Part shown: positions 10,133-28,812 of the stretch, piece by piece
Layout: each line of letters opens with the position of its first letter
Numbering within the stretch: position 1 is the first letter of the stretch
Notes under the pieces: model-generated
Told to the model about the DNA's origin: nothing
What the model saw: the letters and a program-made list of their open reading frames with translations, nothing else
The model's database searches: none
Made by a program: the position numbers and the translations under genes
Assembly (NCBI GenBank): GCA_963785235.1
Contig: CAWAUM010000007.1
Location: forward strand, 224,001-288,000
Source: an uncultured delta proteobacterium
GTDB taxonomy: Bacteria > Desulfobacterota > Desulfomonilia > UBA1062
Direction: 5' to 3'
Length of the DNA: 64,000 nt

Positions 10133-10190
10133 CAGCTGATTCCCCGGTCCTTCGAAAAGAACGTGAACGACGGTCCCGACTGTTTCGAAA

Positions 10191-13189
10191 TCATATCCCG
10201 TACTCTGCACGCTCGATGAGCTCGAGCTGCATGTCCTTGTTGAGCGTGACGAAATAGGCGTTGTACCCCGATATGCGCACCAGCAGGTTCCGGTAGTTTT
10301 CGGGGTGGGCCATGGCGTCCCGGAGCGTCTCCGTGGTCACCACATTCATCTGCATCTGCATGCCGCCCAGCTGGAAGTAGGTCTTGGCATAGGAGAACAT
10401 GTCATTGACCGTCTTCTCGCGGGTGTCATGGGCCGACGGGACCACCTTGACATTGAAGGCGATGTTGTTGGTGATATTGGCCGGGTCCAGCCTTGCCACG
10501 TCCTTTATGTTGTCCAGCAGGTTCTTGGACGCGCAGGGCTGGGGGGTGAGGCCGGGTGTGAAGGGTTTGCCTGCAAGCCGCCCTGACGGCAGGGCGCCCG
10601 TGAGGTTGCCGAAGATCACGTGGTTGGACATGGACCAGAAGCCAACCGTATATTTCCCTCCCCGGTAATGGTCCAGGCTGTAGTAATGGTCATGCGCCCA
10701 CTTGGTCACCTTGTTGGCCATGGCAACGGCCTCATCGCTGCCCGAGCCGAACAGCGGCACCTTCTTGGTCACCAGGGCATAGAGGGCACCATGATTCTTG
10801 AAATTGGTATCCACCGCCCTTTTCAGCTCTTCAAAGGTGACCTTCTTCTCATCGAACACGAGCTTCTTGATGACCATGAGGGAATCCGTCACATCCGCCA
10901 GACCGATGATGGCTGCACCGGAACTGTTGTATACGGCGCCCCCCTTGGTGACATCCTTTCCTTTTGCTGATGCAGCCGCCGATGAGCGAAGAGAGCAGCG
11001 GGGTAGGGCGCAGTTCCTGGTGGGCCCGGCCAAGCATATGGTTGTACTCGATGGACTGGTCGATGATGAAGGCGAACTGCTTGGTGAAGGCATCGAAGAA
11101 GTCGTCAAAGGTCTTGAAGGACCCGTTTTCTATCCTGCCGGTGTCCGGGCCCGAGCTTCCAGTTCATCACCGGGTGAAGGCCGTTGTTCATGGCCATCTC
11201 CAGGGCTGCCACCATGTTCATCATCTGCATGTTGGTGTGGCCGATGTGCTTGCACGAAAGCGTCGGCTCCACGCAGCCGGTGGCCGACCAGTTGCGCAGG
11301 TCTCTGATGTCATAGTTGAATTTCTTCAAAGAGCCCATGACCACCTCGTCGTTGTGCATGGACGGGGTGGCCGCGGTGATGAGGTTCACCTCGCACAGCC
11401 GCTTCAGATAGGTGTCGCTGTTGATGCCGGGGTGGAAGCGTGCATTCACATTGGGGTCGCGGATGGACAGCATCTCGGTCACCTTGAGGAAGATGTAGGT
11501 CATGTCGCACACGGCATCGTCACCATCAGGCGTTACGCCTCCCAAGGTGATGGCCTGGTCCGAGGAGCTGCCGCCGAAATAGAAGTTGGCCAGGTCGGGG
11601 GTGAGCGGCAGATGGTCGGTGCAGCGCATGTAAAAGCACCCGATGAGCTCGATGGCGTGCCGGATGTATTCGTCCCGCTCGGCATCCGTGGCCAGCCTTG
11701 CCATGTCGGCTGCAAAGTAGGGCTGGAACCACTGGTCGAGCCTTCCCAGCGAGAGCCCGGCATTGGTGCTCTCCTGGTGGAGGGCCACCCAGGTGATCCA
11801 GGTGGCGTTCACCGCCTCATCCAGGGTCCGGGCAGGGTTTTCCACCACCTGTGAGCAGATCTCGGCAAGCTTCAGCAGCTCCATCTTGCGTGCGGGATCG
11901 GTCTGCGCCCCGGCATCGATTGATGCCTGTTTCGAGAGGTTCTTCGAATAGCTCGTGAGCCCTTCAAGACACAGGATCATGGCTTCAAGGGTTGCCTTCT
12001 TTTCCTCGTCGCATGCCCCGGAAGCAAGTTCTGAGCGTATCTCTTCCATCATGCCCCTGGTGCCCATCTTCATGATCTTGGGAAAGTCGGGGATGGTGTG
12101 GGATATGGTGGCCTGTTTCCAGTTGAAGTACACGGCAAAGCGCTCGTCGATCTTCTGGCACAGGGGCCTGCCATATTTTTCACGCACCCACTCCTTGAAG
12201 TTCCGGTTTGCCCAGTAGGGGAAGACCTCATGGTGCAGGATCTTCATGGTCTCTTCCGAGATGTCCGCCGGGTTGAGCGTCCGGTGGGGCAGGGTGAGGA
12301 GCTCGGACCAGATCATGGTGCCGTGGCCTTCGGGATATACCACCACGCCGATATCCTTTGTGGTTGTGGTGCCGGCGATGAGGTCGTTTTTCCGGATAAT
12401 GGGCTTCTTGTTTTCCAGGAAGTGCTTAAAAGCTCGGGCCTTTCTTGTAATGGGGACCCACGGTTTGCCATCACGATCCGTTTCAAAACCCAAGGCCTTG
12501 TGCCAGTCAGTGACGATCTTGGGCAGTTCATGACAGACCTCGGGCCTTAGGGTCAGGTGGATATCCAGGAATTCCTTCACCCGGGGGAAGTCTTTCAGGG
12601 AGTACAGGGACAGGTATGGCTCGTTGAGATATTTTACGCCCGGGTCAATGGTCTCGGCCTTCATTCCATACGCGCTTCGGGCATGGATCTCGTTGCTCAG
12701 GTCGGTCCTTGCTACAGGTGATTCCTTTAAAAGGTTCTTCTTGTCAGTTGCCCTCTCTTTTTCCATGAGGGTTTTCTGCTTCTTGTTGATGAGTACGGAC
12801 AGGAGGAAGAAGAACAGATTGAGGTACGAGGCATTGCCCTCGAACCTGAGCTCGCTCTTGAGCATCATGAAGATCTGCTCCGTGGGTGTGGCGGAAAGCA
12901 GTTTCTTTACTGCCTTGTCCGTGCTGAAGTGCAGAACCACATCAGCCTTTTCCGGGATGGAGCCTATCACCGTGACATTGCCTTCATGAAAGATGATGCC
13001 CGCTGTCACGGAATCGTTTTCCGTGCGTATGCCGAGCGAAAAATTGATCCATCCCATGTCGCTTTTCAGATAGGAATTCAAAGGCCCCCACAGGTTATAA
13101 CCGGCGGCCATGAGGCGAAGCAGCATGTGGATCATGATATTGGTGGATGTCTTCCTGACGTGTTCCTGACCGGCTTTCTCTAGCATCAT
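10191..13189 (-). CDS. Glycyl radical enzyme (~1000 aa) with N-terminal SCP2-like extension; frameshifts near 11148 and 10963
   Basis: Cys loop ATGCVEP, glycyl loop LLVRISGYNAYF, PSGRLAGKPF; three ORF pieces join into one PFL2-type fold; ~150 extra N-terminal residues. Confidence 0.9.
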
Positions 13190-13212
13190 GGTACACCCCC
13201 AAGGTATAGTTT

Positions 13213-13869
13213 TTATCTCACGCGAAATGCATGTCTCACGGTAGTAAGCTGTTCGATAAGGTTATCGACCCTGCGCTTAAGGGCCTCTTTGCTGTTTTCA
13301 TCGACCTCGGCAAGGACGTGGCTGTTGAAAAGGCTGATTATGCCGTGCAGGTCGGACCACAACTGGATGTTGATGTCGCGGATCAGGGCTTCATGATTAT
13401 CACACGCACCTATGAGCTCTTTGATGATGCCGGCAATGAGATGGAAGTTTTTCATGGCAGTCGCCTTCTCAAAGGCGGCAACGGGTTCCAGGACGGTTCC
13501 GATATAGTCGATATACTTGGGCGTGTGGAGATTGAACATGAGGTCATAATAGCCTGGGTAGGTGATCCCGAAATTGACATAGGCCCAGACCAGGGCCTTT
13601 ATTCTGTTTTGAAGGGCGGTTTTCTTACCCGATTCCCTGGAGAGCATGGAAAAGAGCATCTCAAAGCCTCTGACCCGGATCATGAGATTGATCTCGTCCT
13701 TGCTGGAATAGTAGTTATAGATATTTGCAGCCGTGATACCGAGACGCGCTGCGATTTTGCGCATGCTCAGCTTGTTGAATCCCTCCTCGATGATCAAGGC
13801 AAGGGCCACATCGAGTATCTTTTCCTTGGTATTGTTTATCTTATCCTGGGTCCAGGCCGCCTTTGGCAT
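13213..13869 (-). CDS. TetR/AcrR family transcriptional regulator
   Basis: HTH LSMRKIAARLGITAANIYNYYSSKDEI; C-terminal LWSDLHG; start could alternatively be TTG at 13884. Confidence 0.92.
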   Translation of the reverse strand: MPKAAWTQDKINNTKEKILDVALALIIEEGFNKLSMRKIAARLGITAANIYNYYSSKDEINLMIRVRGFEMLFSMLSRESGKKTALQNRIKALVWAYVNFGITYPGYYDLMFNLHTPKYIDYIGTVLEPVAAFEKATAMKNFHLIAGIIKELIGACDNHEALIRDINIQLWSDLHGIISLFNSHVLAEVDENSKEALKRRVDNLIEQLTTVRHAFRVR

Positions 13870-13913
13870 AAGGTCCTCTTTCAACTCCCCGAAGAGATAT
13901 GAACGCCGTTCAG

Positions 13914-14157: not shown

Positions 14158-16517
14158 ATGAGGGGTACGATAATAGTTCTTGTTTCGGTATGTGGTCGGG
14201 CTCTTTCTCGCATGTGCTGCGAAGGCTCCGGCGCCGGTGGCCTTTCAGTTTCCCACGAGACATATCGATTACATGAAGGAGGTAAAACCCCTGCTCGACC
14301 GCCGCTGTGTGGTATGCCATTCCTGTTACAATTCCCCCTGCCAGCTCAAGCTCGACTCTTTCGAGGGTGCGGACCGCGGCGCCACGAAAAGGGCTATTTA
14401 CAATAGCTCGCGACTGAGATCCATGGATCCAACCCGTCTCTTCACGGACGCCCAGTCTACCGAGGAGTGGCGTCAGAAAGAATTTTTCAGCGTGACCGAC
14501 AGCAAGGCATCAGGCGATTTGAACGACTCCATCATGATCGAGATACTTTCCCACAAGATGAAAAACCCGAAAAGCGTCGGAGAGTACAAGCCCGAAGCTG
14601 AAGATTTAACCTGTTCCGAAAACCAGGAAGAACTCGGGAGCTACCTGGAAAAACACCCGAACAACGGCATGCCGTTGGGATTTCCGGCGCTCAAGCCCGA
14701 AGAATTCGATATCATTGCGGGCTGGCTGGTTCAGGGCGCCAAGGGACCTGATGCAGCAGAGCAGGAGATGCTGGTCACGCCGAAAGCAAGCGATGCCCTG
14801 GCCATAAAACAGTGGGAAACCTTTCTTAACCTAGACGACGCCAAGCACGTCATGACCGCGCGCTATCTCTATGAGCATCTGTTTCTGGCCCATATTAAAT
14901 TCGGCACGCCAGACCCTTGAATACTATGAACTGTTCCGCTCGAAGACCCCGCCCGGCGAGCCTGTTGATCTCATCGCCACCGTGCGCCCCTATGATGACC
15001 CCGGTACCCCGCGGGTCTACTATCGTTTCAGAAAGATCCACTCCACCATCGTCCACAAGACCCATATGGTTTTCGTTCTTGATGACGCCAAACTGAGCCG
15101 TGTCAAGGAGCTTTTTATCCAGCCGGAATGGTTGCAGCCCCCGCATACGGTAGGCTATGGCAAGAAACTGAGCGCCAATCCTTTTGTCGCGTTTGAACAG
15201 ATTCCCCCGCGTTCGCGCTACCAGTTCCTGTTGGACAACGTACATTATATCATCATGTCCTTCATCCACGGTCCGGTCTGTAAAGGTCAGATTGCCCTCA
15301 ATGTGCTCAATGATCATTTCTGGGTCATGTTCCTGGACCCTGATCACGATCTGAGCGTGGCGTATCCGGCCTTTCTGAAGCTGCACAGCGACAAGCTGCG
15401 CATGCCGATTGAAGCCGGCAGTGACCTGCGCGTTTTTAATGTAATGAACGATGAATATGAAAAGGCCGCCGTTGAGTTTTATAAAGTCCGGCAGGATTTT
15501 TACACGTCGCATCACTACGAAGGTCTCGGCTATGAATCCCTCTGGAAGGGAAACAAGGCCGCCGATGCACCGTTGCTCACGATCTATCGCCATTTTGACA
15601 GCGCATCCGTACATAAAGGGGTCCTGGGAAATCTGCCGAAAACCATGTGGGTGGTGGACTATCCTCTGCTGGAACGGATCTATTATGCGCTGGTTGCCGG
15701 ATTTGATGTGTACGGCACGATCAGCCATAATCTCTCGCTGCGGTATTACATGGATGCGCTGCGCGTTGAAGGCGAGAGCTACTTCCTGGATTTTCTGCCC
15801 GCAGCAAAGCGGCAGGAGATCATGAAGTCGTGGTATCAGGGGGTTGATCTCAAAAAGATTGCATACTATCCTTCCGCTCTGCCGACAAAAATTTCCTTTG
15901 TGACGGACGAACCGAAGCGTGAGTTCATGGAATATATGGTGAACAAACACATTATGCCTGCAACAGATATCGCCTTTGATGCCGTGAACTATGAGCGGGG
16001 AGATGTTGCCTATCCTGGCTTGCCGGATCAAGACAAAACGAAGAATGAATACCTCAAGGCTTTTCGTGCCATATCCAAACCCGGCACGCCATTTTTCTCA
16101 TTGATGAAAGATTACAACATCCATATCGCCTATATGAGAATACGTTTGAAAAATGGAAAAGATCTGGCAATCTCCATCGTGATCAATCAATGGCATGGTA
16201 ATGTTACCCATTTATTCAGTGAAAGTGCTCGACTCGATGTATCAAAGGACAGCGCCGATTTTATTTCCGGCCTCATCGGATCGTATCCAAACTATTTTTT
16301 TGATGTCCGTGAAGAGGACCTGCCCGACTTTTTCGATCTCCTGGCTCATTTTGATAACAGACCGAAAGATTTTGAGAGACTGGACAAATACGGCGTCAAC
16401 AGGGCACAGGATAGGCTCTGGGATGTGTATGACTGGTTTCAAAAACGATTCTATGAGGATGAACCCGTAAACTCCGGGCTGTTCGATTTGAACCGGTACT
16501 ACTACCTAGCCAAGTAG
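14158..16517 (+). CDS. cti: Fatty acid cis/trans isomerase (heme c, lipoprotein-like signal); frameshifts near 14195 and 14915
   Basis: RRCVVCHSCYNSPCQLKL (CxxCH), GADRGATK, YLYEHLFLAH, RHFDSASVHKG, ERIYYALVAGFDVYG, GLFDLNRY are all typical of Cti. Confidence 0.9.
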
Positions 16518-16650
16518 GGTACGGTATTTTTTAGAGTGCTTATACCGTGGAATGACCCAAAACGGGCATTCATGGCCCAATGAGAATCATTATATAACTC
16601 ATTGAATAGTTGTATGGAATAATTACCGGTTCTGTGAGAATGGGCCTGAG

Positions 16651-16667
16651 TGGACATGGAAGTCCCA
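16651..16667. promoter_or_regulatory. Putative enhancer (UAS) palindrome GGAC-N6-GTCC
   Basis: TGGACATGGAAGTCCCA, ~90 bp upstream of the -24 GG; a matching site lies at 22656. Confidence 0.5.
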
Positions 16668-16739
16668 ATAGCGTAGGCTGTCGGAATATGGCATGAAAAA
16701 ATATCTAATAATATCAGATTAATACTTGAAGTATCCCTC

Positions 16740-16756
16740 TTGGCACCCTCCTTGCT
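16740..16756 (+). promoter_or_regulatory. Sigma54 (-24/-12) promoter of the second GRE
   Basis: TTGGCACCCTCCTTGCT, consensus GG-N10-GC. Confidence 0.8.
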
Positions 16757-16908
16757 CATGAATGTCCTATGCATACGGTACGGTAGCATGTGTGAGGATG
16801 TGATGCACAGCAAGGGCATTCATCCTCAGGATAGAAGTTTTATCTGGCTTTATAAACATCACATGCACGCAATCCTTTTCAAGGAAAGACGAGCGGGGAG
16901 GTCCAATC

Positions 16909-19302
16909 ATGGCATGTACAATGAGGAGCAAGGTTTTACGGGATGAGACGTGCATCAAGTCACTGGGAAGGCTGGCTGACAAACGGGCGGTGCGCGAAGG
17001 GCTCAAGATCTGCCTGGAGCGGGCACGGATCATGACCGAAGTATTCAAGGCAAGCGAGGGAGAGCCCATGTGCATCCGCAGGGCCAAGGGACTGGCCGCG
17101 GTCCTGGACAACATGACCCTTTTCTCCCGAGATAAGGAGCTCATTGCAGGCTGCTTTGCAAGCTCGGAAAAGGCATGCCCGACCTACCCTGAGCTCTACT
17201 GGAGGTGGCTTGAAAAGGCTGTTGAAACCAAGCCCGACTATGCCTCCATGCTGACCGAGGTGGGCAAACAGGAGCTGTTCGCCATCCACGAGTACTGGAA
17301 ACCCTTTTCCATCCATGGCCGGGAGCGTGACTATATCCCTCCCGGAAGGTCCTGGAGGATAGGCGACTTCATCACGGGCGGATGGATGTGGCAGTGGGAG
17401 ATCTCCACGCCCAACTACGAGAAGATCCTGAGTATAGGACTCAGTGGGATTATTGCGGAGATCGACAAGAAGCGCTCCGAGGTCCTGTCCGACATCTCCA
17501 TCCCGACCGAGAAGCGCATGAAGATGATCGATGAGCTGACCGCCATGAAGATTTCCACCGAGGCGGCAGCACGGTGGGGCCGGCGATATGCGAAGATGCT
17601 CCAGGAGCACAAGCTTACCGTGAAGGACAAGGCGAGGCGCTCAGAACTCGACAAGATGATCGAGGCATGCTCCCAGGTACCCGCAGGGCCGGCTCGCAAC
17701 CTGCACGAGGCACTGCAGTGCTTCATCATGATCACCTTTATCGTCAACTATATCGACCAGCCCCAGGTGGGCAACGGCATCCGCTTTGACAAGATCTTCG
17801 GGCCATATCTTGAAAAGGATATCAAGGCAGGCGTGCTCAGCCGTGAGCAGGCCAAGGAACTGGTGGAAGGGGTCTGGGTGAAGATGCAGGAGGGGGGATA
17901 TGTTCAGCCGCCCCAATGGGTGAACAACGGCGGCGGCGGGCTTGGTTTCCAGACCATCACCCTAGGCGGCACGGATGAAACGGGAAAGGACATCACCAAT
18001 GACATGACCTACCTGGCCCTGAAGGTAACCGGAGAGCTCCAGACCATTGCCCCGCAGATTGCGGTTCGTATCCATGACAATACGCCCAAGGAGCTCTACC
18101 AGGCCATCTTCAGGTGCGTACGAACCGGATGCGCCCAGCCGGCGGTGTTCAATGACCAGGTAAACCTGCTCAGGCTCGAAGGCCTCGGATGCTCAAAGGA
18201 AGAGGCGAGGCTCTATTCCATCAACAACTGCATGCAGCCGGTCATACCCGGAAAGAACTGCCACTACCGTGCAGGGCACAGCGGAGGATTTGTGCTGCCC
18301 ATGTGCCTGAACCTGGCCCTTGATGAAGGCAGGTTCAGCGGCAAGGTGGTAGGTGCGCCGACACCCTCCATCTCAAAGCTGAAGACCTATGATGATGTGT
18401 GGAAGGCATTCTGCGCCCAGGTGGAGTTTGCTGCCGAGACCCTGGGCATCATCTCCAACATTGCGGATGTACTCCTGAAAGAGTACATCCCCCGGCCGTT
18501 CCTCTCGGCCCTGCTGGACGGCAATATCGAGAAGGGATGCGATATGAGGGACTGGGAATATCTGGGCCTGCGGCATCACCTGGTCTTCGGGGTCAACAAT
18601 GCGGCAGACGGCCTGGCAGCCATAAAAAAGCTCGTCTTTGACGAGAAGAAGCTTACTCTTGAAGAGTACCTGAAGGCGGTCCAGGGCAACTACCAGGGCA
18701 AGTATGAGAGCACCTACCGCCTGATAGAACAGGGCGCACCCAAATTCGGCAACGACGATGACTATGTGGATTTCATCAGCCGAGACATAATGCTCAAGAT
18801 ACGCCAGGAATGCGACAAGTGGACAGACATCTATGGCAAGCCTTTTATCTTAGACGGCACCACTGCATCGGCCCCCATTGGTGCAGGAATGATCCTGCCT
18901 GCTACCTGCGATGCGCGCATGGAAGCAGAGCCTTTTCATGACGGCAGCATCTCCCCGGTCCAGGGAAGAGACACCTCGGGCCCCACTGCCACAGTAAGGT
19001 CTGTGGGCAAGGTGAAGACGCTTGAGACCGGCAACTTCCTTCTGAACCAGAAGTTCATGCCCTCCTTCTTTGATGTGCAGAACTACGAGGTCATGGAAGG
19101 GTACATGAAAACGCTGCGTGACATGGGCATCCATCATGTGCAGTTCAACTGCGTGGACAAGGGCACCATGCTCGAGGCCAAGGCGCATCCCGATAAATAC
19201 CGGGACCTCATCGTACGGGTTGCAGGGTATTCCGCTTACTTCATAGACCTGGACAACCGGATGCAGGACGAGATCATCAAGAGGACCGAGCAGGCGTTCT
19301 GA
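16909..19302 (+). CDS. Glycyl radical enzyme of unassigned class (PFL2/PflD-like, 797 aa)
   Basis: Glycyl loop LIVRVAGYSAYF, Cys loop INNCMQP, PKFGNDDDYVD, ITLGG; RBS GGGGAGG. Confidence 0.92.
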   Translation: MACTMRSKVLRDETCIKSLGRLADKRAVREGLKICLERARIMTEVFKASEGEPMCIRRAKGLAAVLDNMTLFSRDKELIAGCFASSEKACPTYPELYWRWLEKAVETKPDYASMLTEVGKQELFAIHEYWKPFSIHGRERDYIPPGRSWRIGDFITGGWMWQWEISTPNYEKILSIGLSGIIAEIDKKRSEVLSDISIPTEKRMKMIDELTAMKISTEAAARWGRRYAKMLQEHKLTVKDKARRSELDKMIEACSQVPAGPARNLHEALQCFIMITFIVNYIDQPQVGNGIRFDKIFGPYLEKDIKAGVLSREQAKELVEGVWVKMQEGGYVQPPQWVNNGGGGLGFQTITLGGTDETGKDITNDMTYLALKVTGELQTIAPQIAVRIHDNTPKELYQAIFRCVRTGCAQPAVFNDQVNLLRLEGLGCSKEEARLYSINNCMQPVIPGKNCHYRAGHSGGFVLPMCLNLALDEGRFSGKVVGAPTPSISKLKTYDDVWKAFCAQVEFAAETLGIISNIADVLLKEYIPRPFLSALLDGNIEKGCDMRDWEYLGLRHHLVFGVNNAADGLAAIKKLVFDEKKLTLEEYLKAVQGNYQGKYESTYRLIEQGAPKFGNDDDYVDFISRDIMLKIRQECDKWTDIYGKPFILDGTTASAPIGAGMILPATCDARMEAEPFHDGSISPVQGRDTSGPTATVRSVGKVKTLETGNFLLNQKFMPSFFDVQNYEVMEGYMKTLRDMGIHHVQFNCVDKGTMLEAKAHPDKYRDLIVRVAGYSAYFIDLDNRMQDEIIKRTEQAF

Positions 19303-19368
19303 AAAGGAATTTAAGGCCATCCCTTAAGTGAAGATGTACGGGGTGGTGGCAAAGGTCCGAAAAGCCGG

Positions 19369-19417
19369 CCCGTTCAAATCTGTCAACTCGCTTTTTGAGT
19401 TGATGGATTTGAACGGG
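19369..19417. terminator. Long stem-loop downstream of the second GRE
   Basis: CCCGTTCAAATCTGTCAACTC pairs with GAGTTGATGGATTTGAACGGG (with G:U pairs). Confidence 0.6.
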
Positions 19418-19508
19418 TAAAATGAAGGAAAGGCGTGAACATGGGCAGGTCCGTGTTTAATGGCTATTTACACTTGATCGGGATTGATTTGAGCGTCCAG
19501 GTTCTGGC

Positions 19509-19560
19509 CTTTTCAAAGGATCAATCTCCCCGAAAAGGGGGAGATTGATCCTTTGAAAAG
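19509..19560. repeat. Perfect 23-bp inverted repeat just upstream of the activase RBS
   Basis: CTTTTCAAAGGATCAATCTCCCC-GAAAAG-GGGGAGATTGATCCTTTGAAAAG. Confidence 0.8.
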
Positions 19561-19582
19561 GTTGATGAAAAATGGAGTTGCA

Positions 19583-20515
19583 ATGACACGACAAGCATCA
19601 GAAGAGCATGAAAGAACACAGGGAACCATATTCAACATCCAGAACTTCAGCATCCATGACGGCCCTGGAATAAGGACCACAATGTTCCTCAAGGGCTGTC
19701 CGTTGCACTGCCCCTGGTGCTCGAACCCCGAGTCCATATATCCGGCCATCCAGATCAAAATCTCGCCGGAGAAGTGCCGGGGGTGCAAAAAGTGCTCTGA
19801 TGCCTGCGAGAGCGGCGCCCTTTCAATGGAGAATGGAAAGGTCCGTTTTGAACACTCCTTATGTACGGATTGTCTTGCCTGTGCGGGTGTATGTGAAAGC
19901 GGCTGCATCACGAAAATAGGGTCACGTATCAGCGCTGATGAAGCAATAGAAAAGCTCCTGAGGGACAGGCCCTTTTATGAGAATACCGGCGGCGGCGTCA
20001 CTGTATCAGGGGGGGAACCCCTTTTCCAGCAAGAATTCGTATCAGAGATATTGAGCAGGCTCCACAAGCATGGTGTGAATACGGCTGTTGATACCTCGGG
20101 CTTTGCCAGCCGGCCGGCCTTTGCCGGCATCATCGATAACGTGGACCTTTTTCTTTTCGACATCAAGCACCTGGACAGGGAAAAACACCGAAGCACCATA
20201 GGCGTAGACAATGATGTCATCCTGAACAACCTTAAGGAGTGCGCAGCCCGGACTCAGGTTTGGACCAGGACCCCTCTCATACCGGGATTCAACGATGACT
20301 TCGAGGTTACCGACGCTATCGCCAGGCTTGCACATGAAGTCGGTGCCCAGCGATGCTGCTTCCTGCCCGTGCATCGATGGGGCGAGCACAAGTATTCCCG
20401 GCTCGGTCTTGCGAATCCTTATGAAAACATCCGAGAATTTTCAGCAGGGGAGATTGAAATATTCAAAGAGCGGTACAAAAGACAGCAAGGATTCGTGTTT
20501 TTCGAGGCGGCATAA
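19583..20515 (+). CDS. Glycyl radical enzyme activating enzyme with ferredoxin insert
   Basis: HDGPGIRTTMFLKGCPLHCPWCSNPES, 2x CxxCxxCxxxC, GGVTVSGGEP; start ATG 19583 with GGAG RBS. Confidence 0.93.
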   Translation: MTRQASEEHERTQGTIFNIQNFSIHDGPGIRTTMFLKGCPLHCPWCSNPESIYPAIQIKISPEKCRGCKKCSDACESGALSMENGKVRFEHSLCTDCLACAGVCESGCITKIGSRISADEAIEKLLRDRPFYENTGGGVTVSGGEPLFQQEFVSEILSRLHKHGVNTAVDTSGFASRPAFAGIIDNVDLFLFDIKHLDREKHRSTIGVDNDVILNNLKECAARTQVWTRTPLIPGFNDDFEVTDAIARLAHEVGAQRCCFLPVHRWGEHKYSRLGLANPYENIREFSAGEIEIFKERYKRQQGFVFFEAA

Positions 20516-20710
20516 ATCAAACCATTACGCATATCTTTTTTCCCATTCTATCAAACCTGAGGATTCAAGCCCTTTTTGCGTATAAGGCTGGCTGCGTATC
20601 CAAAAGAAATGATTTGACTTTTAATGAGTAATTATTATTATCGTTAACATTGGAATTAGTTTTCCCTGTGATAGCTCACCAGTGATGAAGGCATCAAGGA
20701 GGTTTCCGGT

Positions 20711-22555
20711 ATGAAGAACAGGCTTACCAGCAACATCAAGGAAGAGCAGGCTGTGGATCTCACCAGAAAGATCATTGAGCTTGAAGAATCAACCCGCGGG
20801 TATGAGCGCAGGAGCACGTTCTTCGAACTGCTCATCAGGAGCCTGCCAGGACTGTTCTACGCCTTTGATGACAAGTTCCAGGTGCATATGTGGAACAAGA
20901 ATGTAGAGAAGGTCACCGGGTATATTGCCGATGAAATCCCGGAGCATAGCCTCTTCGAACTGTTTGACGGTGATGACCTCAAGTTCATTCAGGATACCAT
21001 CCAGAATGTGTTCAAGACCGGCGAGGGAGTGGCGGAGGCGATCCTCATTACAAAAGACGGCAGGCGGATCCCCTATTTTTTTACAGGGGTCAGTGCAGTG
21101 ATCGAGGGCACGCCTTACCTCCTGGGTATGGGGCTGGATATCAGCATCCTGAAAGGGGCCGAAGCTGCGTTGCTGGAGAGTGAGGCCCTTTACCGCACCT
21201 TTGCCGCGCGCATGACCGAAGGAGTGACGCTCATTCATGAAGATAAATTCGTGTTCGTGAACAATGCCTTTGCCTCCATGCTCGGATTTTCCGATCCCAA
21301 TGAGATCCTTGGTCAGGATGTCATGGGCTTTGTGAGCAAGGAATTCGAGATGTATTTCAGGGAACTTTTCGAGTCCATCGTAAAGGGCATGTCAAAGGAA
21401 CGTTTTTTCCAGGCCCGGTGGATGAGGGACAAAAAACAGGAGATATGGGTAGAAGGCAGGGGCAACCTTATCCAGTGGAAAGGGAATCCTACCGTTCTGC
21501 TCACAGCACGCGACATCACCGAGACCAAGCTCAAAGAGATCTCCATGCAGGAGGAGGCCGCATACCTCAGAAGGGAAAACGTAACCCTGAGATCATCCAT
21601 TAAAGACCGTTACCGCTTCGGTGACATCATCGGCAAGAGCTCGGCTATTCAGGAAGTCTATGAGCTCATCCTCAACTCGGCAGCCACTGGTGCCAATGTC
21701 ATCATCTATGGCGAGTCCGGCACCGGCAAGGAGCTGGTAGCCAAGGCCATACACCAGTTTTCCAGCCGCTCCGCCAGTCCCTTTGTCCCGGTCAACTGTG
21801 CGGCCATACCCGATAACCTTATCGAAAGTGAATTCTTTGGTTATAAGAAGGGGGCCTTCACCGGCGCCAATACCGATAAACAGGGATATTTGGATATGGC
21901 CCACGGGGGGACCTTGTTCCTCGACGAGGTGGGCGAACTGGGGTTGAATCTCCAGGCTAAACTCCTTCGCGCCATAGAGGGCAGCGGCTATTCGCCGGTG
22001 GGCGGCAATATCACCAAACATTCGGATTTCAGGATTATCGCGGCAACCAACAAGAACCTGCTGGAGTATACGAAAAAGGGCCTCATGCGGGAGGATTTCT
22101 TCTACAGGATCCATATCATACCCATACAGCTCCCCGCACTCAGGCAGCGTAAAGATGACATACCTCTCCTGGTAGAGCACTTCTTGAGAATCTATTCCCC
22201 TGGAAAAAGACTTCCTTCCGTCTCGGGCCATGTGCTGGAGGCGCTCCAGAATTATGACTGGCCGGGCAATGTGCGTGAGCTGCAGAATGTCATCCAGCGT
22301 TATCTTACGGTAAAGAGGATCGACTTCCTTACCCCGGCAACCCAGGAGCCACCTGAGATCTTCAACCAGGCACAGGCCTCGCTGGACAAGGGTAAAAAGG
22401 ACCTCAAGCTTCATGACTACACCGAGAACATCGAGAAGGCAGTAATCATGGATGCGCTGAGCCAGCATCGCTGGAACAAGAGCAAGGCATCAGAGGCATT
22501 GATGATTTCCCGCAAGACACTTCAAAGAAAGATGAAACGGCTCGGGCTGGTGTGA
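20711..22555 (+). CDS. Sigma54-dependent transcriptional activator with two PAS domains
   Basis: GESGTGKE, GAFTGA, FLDEVGE, WPGNVRELQN, Fis-type HTH; two N-terminal PAS-like segments. Confidence 0.95.
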   Translation: MKNRLTSNIKEEQAVDLTRKIIELEESTRGYERRSTFFELLIRSLPGLFYAFDDKFQVHMWNKNVEKVTGYIADEIPEHSLFELFDGDDLKFIQDTIQNVFKTGEGVAEAILITKDGRRIPYFFTGVSAVIEGTPYLLGMGLDISILKGAEAALLESEALYRTFAARMTEGVTLIHEDKFVFVNNAFASMLGFSDPNEILGQDVMGFVSKEFEMYFRELFESIVKGMSKERFFQARWMRDKKQEIWVEGRGNLIQWKGNPTVLLTARDITETKLKEISMQEEAAYLRRENVTLRSSIKDRYRFGDIIGKSSAIQEVYELILNSAATGANVIIYGESGTGKELVAKAIHQFSSRSASPFVPVNCAAIPDNLIESEFFGYKKGAFTGANTDKQGYLDMAHGGTLFLDEVGELGLNLQAKLLRAIEGSGYSPVGGNITKHSDFRIIAATNKNLLEYTKKGLMREDFFYRIHIIPIQLPALRQRKDDIPLLVEHFLRIYSPGKRLPSVSGHVLEALQNYDWPGNVRELQNVIQRYLTVKRIDFLTPATQEPPEIFNQAQASLDKGKKDLKLHDYTENIEKAVIMDALSQHRWNKSKASEALMISRKTLQRKMKRLGLV

Positions 22556-22655
22556 CCGGAAGTGGGCGCTTGTGACCCATGGATATCAATAAATCGACTT
22601 TGTATTTTAATAACAGCAAGTTATATGCTCCGATTTTATTTATACCCCTAGATCC

Positions 22656-22671
22656 GGGACACTTCTGTCCC
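22656..22671. promoter_or_regulatory. Putative enhancer (UAS) palindrome
   Basis: Perfect GGGACA-CTTC-TGTCCC, ~92 bp upstream of the -24 GG. Confidence 0.6.
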
Positions 22672-22746
22672 ACTGTCCATGTACCTGCCTTAATCCTGCC
22701 TTAAGAATACCTACGTAATATCAGCAGAGTAAATACGATTATCCTC

Positions 22747-22763
22747 TTGGCACTATCCTTGCT
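22747..22763 (+). promoter_or_regulatory. Sigma54 (-24/-12) promoter of the mutase/ass operon
   Basis: TTGGCACTATCCTTGCT, consensus GG-N10-GC, directly downstream of a sigma54 activator gene. Confidence 0.85.
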
Positions 22764-22855
22764 CTATCTTGGATAGGGACATGTAACCACAGATCTGATG
22801 TCTCAGCCTTTGAAGTTTTCTTGTTGATTGGCATGTTCCAGCGAAGGGGGTTCAC

Positions 22856-23326
22856 ATGGGTCAGGATTCAAAGATCCGCATTCTCATCGCCAAACCAGGT
22901 CTTGACGGGCATGAACGGGGCGCACACGTGGTGGCCTACGGGCTCAGGGACGAAGGCTTCGAGGTAATTTACACGGGCTTGCGCCAGACTCCAGAGCAGA
23001 TCGTTTCCGCAGCCGTCCAGGAAGATGTCGCCGTCATCGGTCTCTCCATCCTTTCGGGGGCTCACCTCTCGCTGACTAAAAAAGTCATGGAAGGCCTCAA
23101 GGCCAAAGGCGCAGAAGACATCCTGGTTACCGTTGGGGGCATCATTCCTGAAGGAGACAGAAAAGCCCTTGAAAAAATGGGTGTGGGCGGCATCTTCACC
23201 TCAGGCGCGAAGATCAAGGATATTGCGGCATTCATCCGCACAAAGCTCAGAGAAGAAATGCCGTATGAAGAAAATATGGGAATATTTGCTGAAGGTGCCC
23301 TAACCACTGTCAAGGACAGGACATGA
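22856..23326 (+). CDS. Acyl-CoA mutase, cobalamin-binding small subunit
   Basis: AKPGLDGHERG (DxHxxG), GLSILSGAH, GGIIP. Confidence 0.93.
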   Translation: MGQDSKIRILIAKPGLDGHERGAHVVAYGLRDEGFEVIYTGLRQTPEQIVSAAVQEDVAVIGLSILSGAHLSLTKKVMEGLKAKGAEDILVTVGGIIPEGDRKALEKMGVGGIFTSGAKIKDIAAFIRTKLREEMPYEENMGIFAEGALTTVKDRT

Positions 23327-25071
23327 AGGACAATAGAAAAAAGATTGAAGAGGCTGCGAGGAAGTGGGAGGCTGAGATTCTCAATCCTCGCGTGAAGAGG
23401 TTTAACCTGGGCAAGAGTCCTACGAGCTTCCACACCCCCTTGTCAATGAATGGTTCTCAATTCCTGGAAAAAGTCGGATTTCCCGGCCAGTACCCGTTCA
23501 CTGCAGGGAACAATCCCTTTGACTTCTGGAACGCACATGCACGCTCAGCTGCAAAGCTCGGTTACCGGCCCGACTGGGGCGGAGCAGGCGGGGTCGGTAA
23601 ATACGGCGGGTTCGGAACCCCTGCCGATTATCGTGATTATTTATTGAGGATGCAGTCCATGGGACGCAAGGGCGGGCCCAACATCGCCTTTGACCTGGCG
23701 ACCCAGTGCGGATACGACTCTGACAGCCCCTATGCCGAGGGAGAAGTGGGCCGGGTTGGGGTTGCCATAGACTCTCTGCAAGACTTTGCAGTCATCTACG
23801 AGGCCTATACCGGAGATCTCGACATCGACAAGGTGCCGTCCAACTTCACCATCAATGCCCCTGCTGCAATCATCATCGCCATGTATGCCTGTCTTGCCAA
23901 GAAGCGTGGTATCCCGCTTGATAAGTTGAGGGGTACGCCCCAAAACGACATCCTCAAAGAATTCATCGCCCGAGGAACATACATTTATCCACCAAAGCCT
24001 TCCTTGAGGCTGTTCCGCGATACGTGCGTATTCTGCCGTAAGCACATGAGAGCGCTCAACATAAATTCCATCGGAGGCTACCATATGAGGGAGGCCGGAG
24101 CCACACGCACCCAGGATCTGGCATTCTCCATGGCCAACGGCATTGCCTATATCGAGGCCGGTCTCGAAGGCGGACTTGCCGTCGATGAGTTCGCGCCTGC
24201 ATTCACCTTCAATGCATTCGGCGGCAGCATGGAGATCTATAATGAAATAGCATTCCAGAGGGCGGCCCGCAGGATGTGGGCGCATATCCTCAAAGATCGC
24301 TTCGGCGCAAAAGATCCCAGGAGCATGATGATCCGCCAGCCCATCACGGCTCACATCGGATGCTCCAGCACCACGCTCCAGAGACCGCTCAACAATCTCG
24401 CCCGAGCCGTTGTCGGCGGAATGGCGGCCGGCATGTCCGGCGGCATTCCCGGTGCATTCCCTCCCTTTGACGAGCCGCTGGGGCTCGGACATTCCCAGGA
24501 GGCAGTCCAGCTACAGCTCGATGCCACCAGGATCATGATCTACGAGGCCAAGGTGACAGACGTATGCGATCCATGGGCTGGATCCTATTTTATGGAATCG
24601 ATCACGGACGCCACCGAGGAAGCGGCGGCAACCGAGATGGCAAAGATCGAGAAGATGGGGGGAGCGGTTGCGGCCATAGAAAACGGTTACATGCAAAAGG
24701 CAGTGGCCAAGAGTGCATACGAGCGCCAGAAGCTCATCGAGAAGCAGGAGGATTTCGTGGTGGGGGTGAACTGCTTTACTGAGGCTACCGAGATAGAGGT
24801 GTCAGTCAACCGCATGGTGGAAGCGACCTATGACCCAGGGCTCATGAAGACGGCCGAAGAGCGTCAGAAAAAAAATCTGGCCCGATTCAAGAGGGAAAGG
24901 CATGGCAAGGCTGTCCTTACCACTCTTAAGAATCTTAAAAGTCAGGCCGCAGACAAAGACAAGAACCTCATGCCCGCCATCTGTGAATGTGTGGAAAACG
25001 ACGCGACCCTCCAGGAGATCTGCGATGTGCTCCGCGAGGTCTTTGGTGAGTCCCAGCCCATAAAACTCTAG
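23323..25071 (+). CDS. Acyl-CoA mutase large subunit (methylmalonyl-CoA mutase family; probable (1-methylalkyl)succinyl-CoA mutase)
   Basis: AFDLATQCGYDSD, GEVGRVGVAIDS, QNDILKEFIARGTYIYPP, GYHMREAGA; located in the ass operon. Confidence 0.9.
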   Translation: MKDNRKKIEEAARKWEAEILNPRVKRFNLGKSPTSFHTPLSMNGSQFLEKVGFPGQYPFTAGNNPFDFWNAHARSAAKLGYRPDWGGAGGVGKYGGFGTPADYRDYLLRMQSMGRKGGPNIAFDLATQCGYDSDSPYAEGEVGRVGVAIDSLQDFAVIYEAYTGDLDIDKVPSNFTINAPAAIIIAMYACLAKKRGIPLDKLRGTPQNDILKEFIARGTYIYPPKPSLRLFRDTCVFCRKHMRALNINSIGGYHMREAGATRTQDLAFSMANGIAYIEAGLEGGLAVDEFAPAFTFNAFGGSMEIYNEIAFQRAARRMWAHILKDRFGAKDPRSMMIRQPITAHIGCSSTTLQRPLNNLARAVVGGMAAGMSGGIPGAFPPFDEPLGLGHSQEAVQLQLDATRIMIYEAKVTDVCDPWAGSYFMESITDATEEAAATEMAKIEKMGGAVAAIENGYMQKAVAKSAYERQKLIEKQEDFVVGVNCFTEATEIEVSVNRMVEATYDPGLMKTAEERQKKNLARFKRERHGKAVLTTLKNLKSQAADKDKNLMPAICECVENDATLQEICDVLREVFGESQPIKL

Positions 25072-25086: not shown

Positions 25087-26070
25087 ATGGAAGACATGCT
25101 CAAGAGATTGATCGATAGAGCCAGGCAAGGAGACGAAAGGTCCCTTGCTCGGCTCATCTCGCATGTCGAAGACCGCAGGCCGGGCTGGAAGGACGCCATG
25201 AAGACCATGTACTCCCATACGGGCCGTGCATGTGTCATCGGGATTACGGGTTCTCCGGGGGCGGGCAAGAGCACCCTGGTGGGCGAGATCGCCAAGAGAC
25301 TTGCGGATGATGGCTGCACCATCGGCATTATCGCGGTTGACCCGTCGAGCCCGTTCTCGGGCGGGGCGCTGCTGGGAGACCGCATCAGGATGCGTGACAT
25401 CAGCACCGTTAAGGGCATCTTCATCCGGTCCATGGCTACCCGCGGTGTGCTGGGAGGCCTGTGCCAGGCGGCAAAAGACGTGGTGAGGATCATGGATTTT
25501 GCGCGCAAGGACGTGGTTCTCATCGAGACCGTGGGTGTGGGACAGGACGAGATCGAGGTGGTGAGCGCTTCCGACCATGTGATGCTTGTAACCTTTCCGG
25601 GAGGCGGTGACGGCATCCAGGCCATCAAGGCAGGCGTTATGGAGATCGCCGACCTGTTCGTGGTGAACAAGTCCGACCGCGGCGGCGCCGACGAGACGGC
25701 CTCTGAGATCTCGGCCATGCTCGATCTCTCAACCGAGACAAAAGAAGAGATACCGCCCGTCATCAAGACCTCGGCCGTCACCAGGGATGGACTGACTGAG
25801 CTCGTGACCATCCTCCTGGAATACATCCATCAGAAAAAGGCCGGGCTTCCCATCCGGAAGGCCAATGTGCGTCAGGAGATTCTGGGCATCCTTGAGCGCG
25901 AGGTCACCAGCCTCATCAGGGAGCGGATCATGGGCAACGGGAAACTGGATGCAGACATCGAGAGGATAATGGCAGGCAAAAGCGATCCCTACAGCGCGGC
26001 AGACGGAATAATCGCCAGGTTCGCTTTCATGAAGGGCTTGGACAAAACACACGAAGGAGACCCTCAATGA
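25087..26070 (+). CDS. meaB: Mutase-associated GTPase chaperone MeaB
   Basis: GITGSPGAGKST, AVDPSSPFSGGALLGDRIRM, ETVGVGQDE, NKSD. Confidence 0.95.
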   Translation: MEDMLKRLIDRARQGDERSLARLISHVEDRRPGWKDAMKTMYSHTGRACVIGITGSPGAGKSTLVGEIAKRLADDGCTIGIIAVDPSSPFSGGALLGDRIRMRDISTVKGIFIRSMATRGVLGGLCQAAKDVVRIMDFARKDVVLIETVGVGQDEIEVVSASDHVMLVTFPGGGDGIQAIKAGVMEIADLFVVNKSDRGGADETASEISAMLDLSTETKEEIPPVIKTSAVTRDGLTELVTILLEYIHQKKAGLPIRKANVRQEILGILEREVTSLIRERIMGNGKLDADIERIMAGKSDPYSAADGIIARFAFMKGLDKTHEGDPQ

Positions 26071-27410
26071 GTGGAAATGGTGCAGGCTTTACCGCAAAGC
26101 TCGCCTCGTTCATCTCTCATACGGACGCTGATAAAATCCCGCAGTGGGCGTATGAGCATGCCAAGGTGGCATTCATGGACTGGCTTGCCGTTACCTTTGC
26201 CGGCAAGGACGACCCGTTGGTGGCAAAGCTCATGGACTATACCGACATGATGGGGGGCAATGAGCAGGCCACCATTATCGGCTATCACCGGAAAAAGGAC
26301 GTGAGCAGCGCAGCCCTCATCAACGGAAGCGCCTCTCATGCCCTGGATTACGATGACACGCTGGTCTCCTTCCTGGGGCACCCTTCCGTGACCATCTTCC
26401 CGGCCCTGCTGGCCCTTTCCGAGTGGAGGGGCAAATCCGGCCGTGAATTCCTCACCGCCTACCTCATCGGCCTGCAGGCCGGAGGCACCGTGGGTGCCTG
26501 CGCAAGCCTCGACCATTACATGGCAGGATGGCACGCCACCTCGACTTTGGGGCACCTTGCTTCTGCAGCAGCGTGCTCGCGCCTGCTTGGCCTGTCCGAG
26601 AAACAGACCGTCTATGCCCTGGGCATCGGCGGCACCCAGGCCTCAGGGCTCAAGCGCGTGTTCGGGACCATGTGCAAGCCATTCCATGCAGGCCGGGCTT
26701 CCCAGTCAGGCCTCATGGCGGCCCTTCTGGCAGAGCAGGGGTTTACGAGCGCCGAGGACATCCTGGAAGGCCCCCAGGGTTTCTTCGAGGCCCTGAAGGG
26801 CAAGGTGAACGAAGATATCGTCGCTATGCTGGGTCTGGGATGGGACGTTCAGAACCTTTCGCAGAAATACCATGCGTCCTGCCATGCCACCCATTCACCT
26901 CTTGAGGCGGCCCTGACTGTGATCAAATCCGAAAACATCACGCTCGATAATATCAAGACCATCACAGTCCATGCCTCCACCCTATCCCTGCAGGCGGCAG
27001 GCAAGACCGAGCCGGCCACCGGTCTGGAGGGAAAATTCAGCATTTCCTACTGTGTGGCCAATGCCCTGCTGCGAGGCGTGACAGGCATGCAGGCCTTCAC
27101 GGACGAGAAGGTGAATGACCCAGCGGTAAGGGAGATTATGAAGAAGATCAAGGTGATCAACGACCCTGAGATAAAGGCACTGGAATCCCTTGTGGAGGTG
27201 GAGACTGGGGACGGTAAAAGGTTCAGTTCCTTTTCAGACATCCTCCAGCAGATCCCGCCCCTGGAGGTCAAGAAGGAGCGCGTGGCCAGCAAGTTCCTCG
27301 ATCTGTGCGGGCCTGTGCTGGGGAAGAGGAAATCCCTTGCGCTGAAGAAAAGGATCGAGGCCATGGATACGCTTCAGGACATGGGAGATATGGCGGAGAG
27401 TCTCTTATGA
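26067..27410 (+). CDS. MmgE/PrpD family protein (candidate alkylsuccinate epimerase)
   Basis: [34 protein letters not shown]; family commonly found next to ass genes. Confidence 0.88.
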
Positions 27411-27478: not shown

Positions 27479-28518
27479 ATGGAAGAGCGTGTGCTGATCA
27501 CCGATATTGCCAGGTTCGCCGTGAATGACGGTCCGGGAATTAGGACAAACGTTTTCATGAAAGGCTGTCCTCTTAAGTGTGCCTGGTGCCACAATCCCGA
27601 AACCATTGCAGCAAAGCCCCGAATTATACTGGAAGAGCAGGCTCTGTGTCGCAGTGCGGGGCATGTCTTGAGGTCTGCCCGAAGGATGCCATCATGCCTC
27701 CCATAGCACCCGAGCGCTCAAGCAGCGAAGGCTCAACCTATCACAAGATAAACCGCACGAGGTGCGATGGTTGCATGAAGTGCGTGGATGTCTGCAGGTA
27801 TGAGGCCCTGCAGGTGACGGGTAAAGCCATGGGCATATCCGAGATCCTTGACGAGGTGGAGCGGGACAGGCCATTCTACAACAATCGGGCAGGAGGCATG
27901 ACCGTAAGCGGCGGCGAGCCCACGGCGCATTCTGCATTCACTCTGGAGCTGCTCAAGGGGGCAAGGGCGCGTTCGATCCACACCTGCCTTGACACCAATG
28001 GATACTGCGACTTCAGTGTCTTAAAGGAGATTGCGGAATATACGGATATCGTCCTTTTTGACCTGAAGCACCTTGACCCTGGAAGGCACCTCGAAAAGAC
28101 CGGGGTCAATAACAGCCTCATCCTGAAAAACCTTGAACTGCTCTGCGGAACCGGCTCTGAGATCTGGATACGCATTCCCGTGGTTCCGGGGTTCAATGAC
28201 ACCATAGAGTTCCATCGGGAGGCATCCGTTTTTCTCGCCTCCCTTGACGGACATGTGACACGCATCGATCTCCTGCCGTTCCACAACTGGTGCCAGGATA
28301 AGTATTCCTGGCTCGGTATCGACTGGTCATATCGCGAAACAGAAGCCCTGGATCCCTCGTTCCTGGAGATCCATGCGGACGTCTATCGCCAATATGGCCT
28401 TGTGACAACAGTGGGCGGGTCAGGGTTTGAAGACACAGGCACGGCAGCCAAGCCCGGGGAGTACTCGGAGACTTCGAGCCGTAAAGGCAATATCATAAGC
28501 CAGATGGAAAAGGTGTGA
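27479..28518 (+). CDS. assD: Alkylsuccinate synthase activating enzyme; indels near 27620-27650
   Basis: [26 protein letters not shown] plus ferredoxin motifs CGACLEVCP and [11 protein letters not shown]; directly upstream of assC/assA. Confidence 0.88.
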
Positions 28519-28574
28519 TGAGTTTAAACATGAAGCCAAAATTAAAAAATGAGCAGTGAAAGGGGGTGATATTG

Positions 28575-28739: not shown

Positions 28740-28812
28740 AAACAGATCAGGGACTGACCAAAAAAGATGGAAGTCAGCTGAGAAGTCAAACGGTAACAAG
28801 GGAGGAAATATT

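Follow-up and report, generated by a model that had tools for sequence, protein, structure and literature searches.

The locus and its two sigma-54 promoters

The 64-kb window analysed here, by which we mean the whole stretch of DNA, comes from the draft genome of an uncultured delta proteobacterium (contig CAWAUM010000007.1) and carries, in one direction, a glycyl radical enzyme (GRE) gene, the gene of a GRE-activating radical SAM enzyme, the gene of a sigma-54 enhancer-binding protein (EBP) and an operon in which B12 mutase genes precede those of an alkylsuccinate synthase, called mcm-ass below (Table 1). A first-pass annotation had proposed that the GRE gene and this operon have nearly identical sigma-54 promoter regions, each with a GGAC-N6-GTCC palindrome about 90-92 bp upstream of the -24 GG, and that the activator encoded between them switches on both units. 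Both promoter strings are indeed present, ATCCCTCTTGGCACCCTCCTTGCTC at 16733-16757 before the GRE gene and ATCCTCTTGGCACTATCCTTGCTC at 22741-22764 before the mcm-ass operon, and they hold the only strict sigma-54 matches in the window: TGGCAC-N5-TTGCW occurs twice (16741 and 22748) against 0.04 expected, and none of 100 shuffles gave two matches. The palindrome is likewise found at 16652-16665 and 22657-22670, 89 and 91 nt before TGGCAC and therefore 90 and 92 nt before the -24 GG of the GRE and mcm-ass promoters, respectively. Taken alone GGAC-N6-GTCC is weak evidence, with five matches in the window against 1.32 expected, a mild enrichment, and it was superseded by a 16-bp dyad, GGGACA-N4-TGTCCC, considered together with its distance from the promoter. 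Alignment of the two upstream regions limits their similarity to this dyad, a TAATATCAG box and the -24/-12 elements with the bases directly around them.

The two promoters, each with the dyad and a box resembling an integration host factor (IHF) site, are the only such pair in the 3.9-Mb draft genome (G000), to which all whole-genome counts refer. Of the 16 strict sigma-54 sites that it contains, none but this pair is preceded by the palindrome within 130 nt, and the TAATATCAG box is likewise restricted to this pair. Conversely, 136 sites genome-wide agree with GGGACA-N4-TGTCCC in at least 10 of 12 positions, and a sigma-54-type promoter lies 60-140 nt away in just two cases, again those described here, so that the combination of motifs put forward in the first-pass annotation proves specific to this locus. 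The genome also encodes rpoN (PF04552, 208.8 bits, G000:C11:186555-187031).

The protein encoded between the promoters has the PAS-PAS architecture of a sigma-54 activator that had been claimed for it, with PAS/PAS_9, Sigma54_activat (PF00158, 214 bits) and HTH_8 (49.8 bits) domains, and the GAFTGA motif can be read in its translation. Its recognition helix, ISRKTL.RK, is conserved throughout the related loci described below.

The hallmarks of the PFL-like GRE superfamily are present in the first unit, namely the RVAGYSAYF motif, the C441 loop and the adjacent radical SAM activase. The GRE is thus not an orphan, as had been supposed, because its own activase comes next and scores far above the family cut-off; the activase open reading frame (ORF) opens at a TTG at 19553, and the ATG at 19565 is the likelier start. 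Two near-perfect hairpins fill the intervening 19303-19565; they are unique in the genome, conserved in the closely related locus L001 and partly so in L002, and may, by attenuation or by RNA processing or stabilisation, uncouple the levels of GRE and activase. A search of the whole window against Rfam at the gathering threshold gave 0 matches and hence no known leader RNA. Neither the GRE-activase gap nor the activase-EBP gap holds a conserved small ORF, and no small subunits were found beside the GRE.

The second unit, by homology, encodes a complete alkylsuccinate synthase set of AssD, gamma subunit, AssA, MasB-like and MasE-like proteins, behind the mutase, MeaB and MmgE/PrpD-like genes. 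The AssA frame opens at 28693, with a probable start at the ATG at 28813. The set corresponds to that of the solved (1-methylalkyl)succinate synthase (MASS, PDB 9o8u), with which it shares the alpha subunit, MasC-type gamma, MasB-like and MasE-like subunits and the activase. Further downstream on the same strand lie genes for MoxR/VWA proteins, enoyl-CoA hydratases, an acyl-CoA ligase, malate dehydrogenase and parts of a transcarboxylase.

Table 1. Genes and predicted regulatory features of the GRE, EBP and mcm-ass units (positions in the window)
Feature	Position	Strand	Basis
Predicted upstream activator site, GRE promoter, TGGACATGGAAGTCCC	16651-16666	.	10/12 of GGGACA-N4-TGTCCC, 90 nt before TGGCAC
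IHF-like box, GRE promoter, TATCAGATTAATA	16712-16724	+	WATCAR-N4-TTR with one mismatch, 29 nt before TGGCAC
Sigma-54 promoter of GRE unit (-24 TGGCAC, -12 TTGCT)	16741-16756	+	Exact consensus, conserved before GRE orthologues
GRE, 797 aa	16909-19302	+	PFL-like and Gly_radical domains; catalytic Cys441 in loop INNCMQPVIPGKNCHYRAGH; glycyl motif RVAGYSAYF
First long hairpin, GRE-activase gap	19368-19414	+	Folding z = -10 for 19300-19570
Second long hairpin, stem ~26 bp, ending at activase start region	19507-19565	+	Same folding analysis
GRE-activating radical SAM enzyme	19553-20515	+	TIGR02494, 323.7 bits (cut-off 174)
Sigma-70-like promoter candidate before EBP gene	20614-20641	+	TTGACT-16-TATTAT, 10/12, consensus match only
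EBP	20711-22555	+	PAS, PAS/PAS_9, Sigma54_activat AAA+ domain with GAFTGA, Fis-type helix-turn-helix (HTH)
Predicted upstream activator site, mcm-ass promoter, GGGACACTTCTGTCCC	22656-22671	.	Perfect dyad, 12/12, 92 nt before TGGCAC
IHF-like box, mcm-ass promoter, TATCAGCAGAGTA	22719-22731	+	29 nt before TGGCAC
Sigma-54 promoter of mcm-ass operon	22748-22763	+	Exact consensus
B12 mutase small subunit	22856-23326	+	Domain/family profiles
B12 mutase large subunit	23323-25071	+	Domain/family profiles
MeaB GTPase	25087-26070	+	Domain/family profiles
MmgE/PrpD-like protein	26067-27410	+	Domain/family profiles
AssD, alkylsuccinate synthase activase	27577-28518	+	Domain/family profiles
Gamma subunit, MasC/BSS-gamma homologue	28566-28739	+	9o8u_C, E 5.6e-11; 4pkc_C, E 1.8e-5
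AssA/MasD catalytic subunit	28693-31320	+	1241 bits to solved MasD chain 9o8u_A
MasB-like subunit	31384-31758	+	Homology to MasB
MasE-like subunit	31795-32016	+	Homology to MasE

Conservation of promoter and upstream site

A scan of related genomes, with one genome per species, gave 28 loci with GRE orthologues (63-97% identity), 25 of which include the gene start, in metagenome-assembled genomes (MAGs) and single-cell genomes labelled Smithella, Syntrophaceae, Desulfomonilia, Deltaproteobacteria and Desulfobacterales. In most of these loci an activase gene comes after that of the GRE, and 13 have the GRE, activase and EBP genes linked; mutase/ass genes are present in nine loci, in three arrangements (co-directional, divergent, or with the GRE downstream). 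When the 350 nt upstream of the GRE were searched, 16 of the 25 loci had a strict sigma-54 promoter and one more (L020) had one with a relaxed -12 element. The dyad, scored as at least 9 of the 12 positions of GGGACA-N4-TGTCCC, is present at 21 of 27 promoters before GRE, mcm-ass or Smithella malate dehydrogenase/fumarase genes, against 3.3% of 20,000 random windows, and lies 89-104 nt upstream in these 21; in L034 it lies at 109 nt. At the GRE promoter in particular, the same site is found at the same distance in orthologous loci. An IHF-like box, scored as WATCAR-N4-TTR with one mismatch allowed, is found 26-30 nt before TGGCA in 22 of the 32 related promoters, whereas 2.6% of random 50-nt windows contain one. 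The first-pass proposal of a sigma-54 promoter coupled to this palindrome therefore extends beyond the window, as both elements recur before GRE orthologues and before the ass operon.

The dyad itself varies between lineages, and does so in step at the two units. The Smithella variant TAGTCAAATATGTCCC precedes the GRE in L014-L016, L019 and L025 and the mcm-ass operon in L029, and a stretch of about 40 nt is nearly identical between L014 (GRE) and L029 (ass). One Smithella genome (G136) has closely related sites before its GRE (L017) and its ass genes (L034), and sites of the GGGCACATCTGTCCC type precede both units in the group L006/L007/L008/L018.

Smithella genomes hold further sigma-54 promoters with an inverted dyad (GGGACACTCCTGACTA or GGGACATTTCTGGTCA), at L015 21365, L016 16082, L019 11778, L025 6212 and L034 18852, which precede malate dehydrogenase-transcarboxylase genes and a fumarate hydratase gene. 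Because of these positions, the predicted Smithella regulon seems to include fumarate regeneration.

GRE orthologues are also found away from ass genes, beside an old yellow enzyme (OYE)-type reductase and an aldehyde:ferredoxin oxidoreductase (L004 7681-16376), in an Atu-like acyl-CoA carboxylase cluster (L013 3448-9857) and with beta-oxidation/mutase genes (L012 11-9842). In L020 (4930-11817) the orthologue adjoins acyl-CoA dehydrogenases.

Co-occurrence with AssA and the case for a shared regulon

Across 122 genomes of the window's class, AssA orthologues are encoded in 16, of which 13 belong to the window's family (f1). Orthologues of the EBP sensor half (at least 55% identity) occur in 13 of the 122, which are exactly those 13 AssA genomes of the family, and GRE orthologues (at least 75% identity) in ten, all among the 13 that have both AssA and EBP; the 106 AssA-negative genomes of the class gave no GRE orthologue. 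Had GRE homologues occurred independently of assA, this would have spoken against the first-pass proposal, and within the class none do (10/10 GRE genomes carry AssA). Likewise, among 24 MAGs with GRE loci AssA was found in 20.

In the other family of the class, L043, L044 and L045 (genomes G048, G050 and G057) have a different EBP, with 37-40% identity, before assD-assA, and the sigma-54 promoters of L043 and L044 are without this dyad. As these two loci differ in both EBP and dyad, sigma-54 control of ass genes may extend beyond the regulator described here, and a second, unrelated sigma-54 regulator may control the ass genes in that family.

Co-regulation of the two units by the EBP is supported by this comparative evidence, because promoter, dyad and IHF-like box are conserved before GRE and mcm-ass in several lineages, because lineage-specific dyad variants are common to both promoters, and because EBP orthologues are found in exactly the 13 AssA genomes of the family and the GRE, within the class, only in AssA genomes. 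Several observations weigh against this view. In 8 of the 25 GRE loci no recognisable sigma-54 promoter was found within the 350 nt searched, and among these the GRE stands behind beta-oxidation/mutase genes (L011, L012, L022 and L028), in the Atu-like carboxylase cluster (L013) or beside a TetR gene (L009). The dyad is degenerate, with 7-8 of 12 positions, in L002, L003, L026 and L040. AssA was not found in 4 of the 24 GRE-bearing MAGs, whose completeness is not reported. Three AssA- and EBP-containing genomes, 99%, 92% and 86% complete, are without the GRE, and the 99%-complete one, G086, retains the EBP-promoter-ass arrangement, which means that the core pathway does not require the GRE. 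Because many further EBP paralogues are encoded in the genome, the assignment to this EBP rests on adjacency and co-occurrence. A search for sequencing runs that contain 16500-23300 gave 22, all of them DNA contigs with a word share of 0.36 or less, and no RNA run. Finally, the related loci share ancestry and are not independent samples, so that the argument for a regulon is drawn from elements that are conserved against diverged flanks.

These exceptions could be taken to mean that the GRE has a general fermentative or lipid function unrelated to alkanes, and came to share the regulator through local promoter copying or a mobile ass island. The eight promoterless loci with their other gene contexts, the presence in the genome of some nine GRE loci of several kinds, the mobile ass islands reported for Smithella in the main text of a comparative paper (PMC13685792) and the gene content of G086, which shows no loss of degradation capacity without the GRE, would all suit such an account. 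Yet promoter, dyad and linkage are kept across lineages in which the GRE is only 63-75% identical and the flanks have diverged, the Smithella GRE-EBP unit and ass island lie on different contigs and have the same site, and 0 of 106 AssA-negative genomes of the class has a GRE orthologue, which together make an unrelated function decidedly improbable. We consider it likely instead that the locus represents a small sigma-54 regulon for anaerobic alkane metabolism, in which promoter control shared with the ass operon would make the GRE an accessory enzyme of the fumarate-addition pathway. The earlier suggestion that this GRE takes part in alkane metabolism alongside AssA is accordingly probable, given the shared predicted regulon and the co-occurrence with AssA; the reaction it may catalyse is considered below.

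A GRE of an uncharacterised family

Judged from its sequence, the GRE is a catalytically competent member of an uncharacterised family. It passes no NCBIfam equivalog cut-off, the best match being TIGR01774 with 457 bits, and searches with the protein in the ESM Atlas returned only generic PFL-like clusters. Its Cys loop reads INNCMQPVIPGKNxHYRAGH, and NCMQP is kept in 32 of the 36 closest homologues. In a tree of 45 rows, from which two truncated paralogues and most locus copies were omitted, the GRE clade has 100/100 support and is nested with 99/99 support in a wider family marked by INNCMxP, far from AssA and from the CXE-type paralogues. Members of the wider family have 43-47% full-length identity to the GRE and the same loop frame, INNCM-x-P-x-IPGKN, whereas the NCMQP...HYRAGH loop and a GGWMWQWEIS motif are specific to the alkane-associated clade.

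The INNCMxP relatives (proteins P0037-P0120), a large family of metagenomic proteins, have loops of the form INNCM(V/Y/F/S/W)P, and none scores above about 400 bits to a solved structure; rows with source names come from Chloroflexi/Chloroflexota, Dehalococcoidia, Thermodesulfobacteriota, Smithellaceae and Candidatus Jordarchaeaceae (Asgard archaea). A 'distant' GRE group, with which the INNCMxP family might coincide, has been proposed for fumarate addition by Dong et al. 2019 (PMC6472368).

By sequence score the nearest solved structures are those of B12-independent dehydratases, glycerol dehydratase (1r8w, 400 bits) and propanediol dehydratase (5i2a, 387 bits), followed by benzylsuccinate synthase (BSS, 371 bits) and MasD (303 bits). 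With the dehydratases the GRE shares the fold and about 30-32% identity; TIGR01774 is the best NCBIfam match, and an aldehyde:ferredoxin oxidoreductase gene lies downstream in L004. A diol/glycerol-type dehydratase or other 1,2-eliminase is nonetheless very improbable indeed. The NCBIfam scores fall far under their cut-offs (457 vs 678; 422 vs 1100), and alignment places I, Q and H of the GRE at glycerol dehydratase H164, E435 and D447, so that the diol-site His and Asp are replaced (I at H164, and H457) as well as the catalytic Glu (Q443). Eliminases and isomerases keep a CXE motif, according to the part of a 2026 review that treats them (PMC13450708), and the whole GRE clade has C-M-Q in its place, as do 32 of the 36 closest homologues. 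According to the PhdB study (PMC7079210), HypD and CutC become inactive on E-to-Q exchange. Given this invariant Cys loop without the Glu of eliminases, isomerases and most decarboxylases, Glu-dependent 1,2-eliminase or isomerase chemistry, on sequence grounds, cannot be that of the GRE.

An adjacent Cys-Cys pair on the Cys loop is the rule in pyruvate formate-lyase (PFL). The GRE has N-C-M here and scores 93 bits to TIGR01255 against a cut-off of 994.

An AlphaFold2 model of the GRE (pLDDT 87, pTM 0.90) has the fold of the non-PFL GREs, with Foldseek TMq of 0.83-0.91 and VIA-align Z of 36-43 across them. Foldseek ranks three BSS alpha chains first (TMq 0.90-0.91), and VIA-align ranks CutC first (Z 43.0), followed by MASS (41.2) and BSS (40.2). 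As both rankings are near ties among all non-PFL GREs, fold comparison was set aside as a classifier.

The GRE could be a hydrocarbon- or alkyl-adding enzyme of the X-succinate synthase (XSS) type. It would then serve as a second activating enzyme with another substrate range or, instead, as a different alpha subunit that makes use of the small subunits of the ass operon; the lack of adjoining small-subunit genes of its own would fit such borrowing. Its Cys loop starts C-M like those of BSS (LCMSP) and AssA (ACMSP), the Trp-rich GGWMWQWEIS aligns with the BSS stretch around E189-Y197-S199, and BSS alpha chains are the three best Foldseek matches, as noted; to these may be added the strict co-occurrence with AssA in the window's class and the shared predicted regulator. 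A nearly invariant arginine of the family, R454, also follows the Cys loop close to the position of R508, a residue with a role in BSS; the alignment of the two is, however, off by two or three positions. Other comparisons are less favourable. The GRE shares the fold of MASS (9o8u; TMq 0.91, Z 41.2) and its C-M loop start, but at about 27-28% identity (27-32% over BSS and MASS), in 797 aa without the N-terminal extension, with Gln for the XSS Ser after C-M, and with no adjacent small-subunit genes. It scores 371 and 303 bits to BSS and MASS but 400 to glycerol dehydratase, where AssA scores 478 bits to BSS, and in the tree, whose sole XSS is the AssA of the window, it does not group with AssA and its family stands apart on a long branch. 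Moreover, XSS alpha subunits, as described in the review (PMC13450708), need gamma for solubility and are in every case encoded together with small subunits. An XSS-type enzyme is for these reasons a rather unlikely identity for the GRE, if one that deserves to be kept in view.

The phenylacetate decarboxylase PhdB (PAD), an arylacetate-acting enzyme of other bacteria, offers a different precedent. In passages of its description (PMC7079210) PhdB alone has Gln for the Cys-loop Glu (C482-x-Q484), and its variants Q484E, Q484A and Q484L are inactive. The GRE matches this C-x-Q pattern with C441-M-Q443, which does not vary within the clade, and it is without small subunits, as is said of AAD in the relevant part of the review (PMC13450708). 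It could thus be a PhdB-like decarboxylase, or another H-atom-transfer enzyme, acting on a carboxylic acid that arises in alkylsuccinate or branched fatty-acid processing. Its recurrent acyl-CoA neighbours (enoyl-CoA hydratases, acyl-CoA dehydrogenases, carboxyl transferases and the mutase) would suit this, as would the aldehyde:ferredoxin oxidoreductase that follows the GRE in L004. On the other side, the position 13 residues after the Cys, Trp in PhdB, is Arg in the GRE, and the comparison covers the published PhdB motif, beside which W495 and Y691 are also essential in PhdB; in addition, the accepted alkane pathway has no decarboxylation step without an enzyme candidate, carboxyl transferases being encoded nearby. 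We therefore regard this identity as unlikely.

Taken together, the sequence comparisons suggest that the GRE most likely abstracts an H atom from a hydrophobic, carboxylate-bearing or hydrocarbon substrate, for XSS-like addition or PhdB-like decarboxylation. More tentatively, and with real doubt, the C-M-Q GRE may found a new functional class, a stand-alone radical enzyme, without small subunits, for an unassigned step of anaerobic alkane oxidation that is switched on together with AssA by a dedicated, previously undescribed sigma-54 activator common to Smithella, Desulfomonilia-like syntrophs and Desulfobacterales; it might activate hydrocarbons in a second way or convert alkylsuccinate-derived acids by radical chemistry.

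Neighbouring genes and other GREs

Just upstream of the GRE lies a fatty acid cis/trans isomerase (CTI) gene (14180-16517, + strand), in which a 1-bp insertion near 14909 has left two ORFs that overlap. In L001, which is 97% related, CTI is a single open frame of at least 735 aa, and the split gene is either a pseudogene or an assembly error. A third GRE system is encoded on the opposite strand at 9204-13884, with a TetR gene (13213-13884), a GRE in two abutting ORFs (11105-13189, with the PFL-like N-terminal part only, and 10191-11108, with the glycyl radical domain) and an activase (9204-10055). An unsplit 991-aa paralogue of this GRE, with 47% identity, is found on contig C12, and the split is either a frameshift or natural. 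In all, the genome has about nine GRE loci, with Cys-loop types CXE, C-V-G, C-M-S and C-M-Q, and many activases.

A model for sigma-54 control of alkane genes

In the mechanism that we propose, the EBP would be expressed, probably, from its own sigma-70-type promoter and would bind, at both target promoters, the 16-bp dyad, whose centre lies about 84 bp (eight helical turns) before the -24 element. A bend of the IHF type near position -55 would bring the bound EBP to the closed sigma-54 holoenzyme, and a signal sensed by the PAS domains would lead it to open both promoters. The first promoter would then give the 797-aa GRE and its activase, and the second the mutase, MeaB and PrpD-like proteins, AssD, gamma, AssA and the MasB-like and MasE-like subunits and, from the genes beyond them, acyl-CoA enzymes, malate dehydrogenase and transcarboxylase. 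The GRE would thereby act as an accessory enzyme of the fumarate-addition alkane pathway in most, though not all, organisms that have this regulator and AssA.

The architecture is that of enhancer-dependent sigma-54 systems generally, in that an IHF-like box separates a -24/-12 promoter from a dyad some 90 nt upstream of it, and the one-component EBP is made up of an N-terminal sensor, an AAA+ domain with GAFTGA and a Fis-type HTH. Examples are the hydrocarbon-responsive systems XylR/Pu and DmpR/Po of aerobic pseudomonads, and RedR1/RedR2 of Aromatoleum may be a further case. Unlike these, the EBP described here has a PAS-PAS sensor, not V4R/XylR_N, and its predicted targets are GRE operons of strict anaerobes. 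In the literature searched, with supplements and subscription papers outside its scope, we found no paper that links sigma-54 to alkylsuccinate synthase and no description of how fumarate-addition alkane genes are switched on. Neither 'sigma' nor 'regulator' occurs in the main text of the 2026 Smithellaceae comparative paper that reports the mobile ass islands (PMC13685792).

The locus thus provides a concrete regulatory model of one activator, a defined 16-bp site and sigma-54 promoters, which the related genomes suggest would apply to the principal syntrophs that degrade alkanes in oil reservoirs and contaminated sediments. The dyad and promoter together could be used to predict regulon members in metagenomes, as with the malate dehydrogenase-transcarboxylase and fumarase genes of Smithella. 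The analysis also singles out an uncharacterised GRE as a conserved companion of alkylsuccinate synthase. If this enzyme does act on hydrocarbons or on intermediates of the pathway, it would bring a new reaction type to a superfamily for which the review, in the part that lists them, recognises seven classes (PMC13450708), and would provide a second marker gene for anaerobic alkane degradation.

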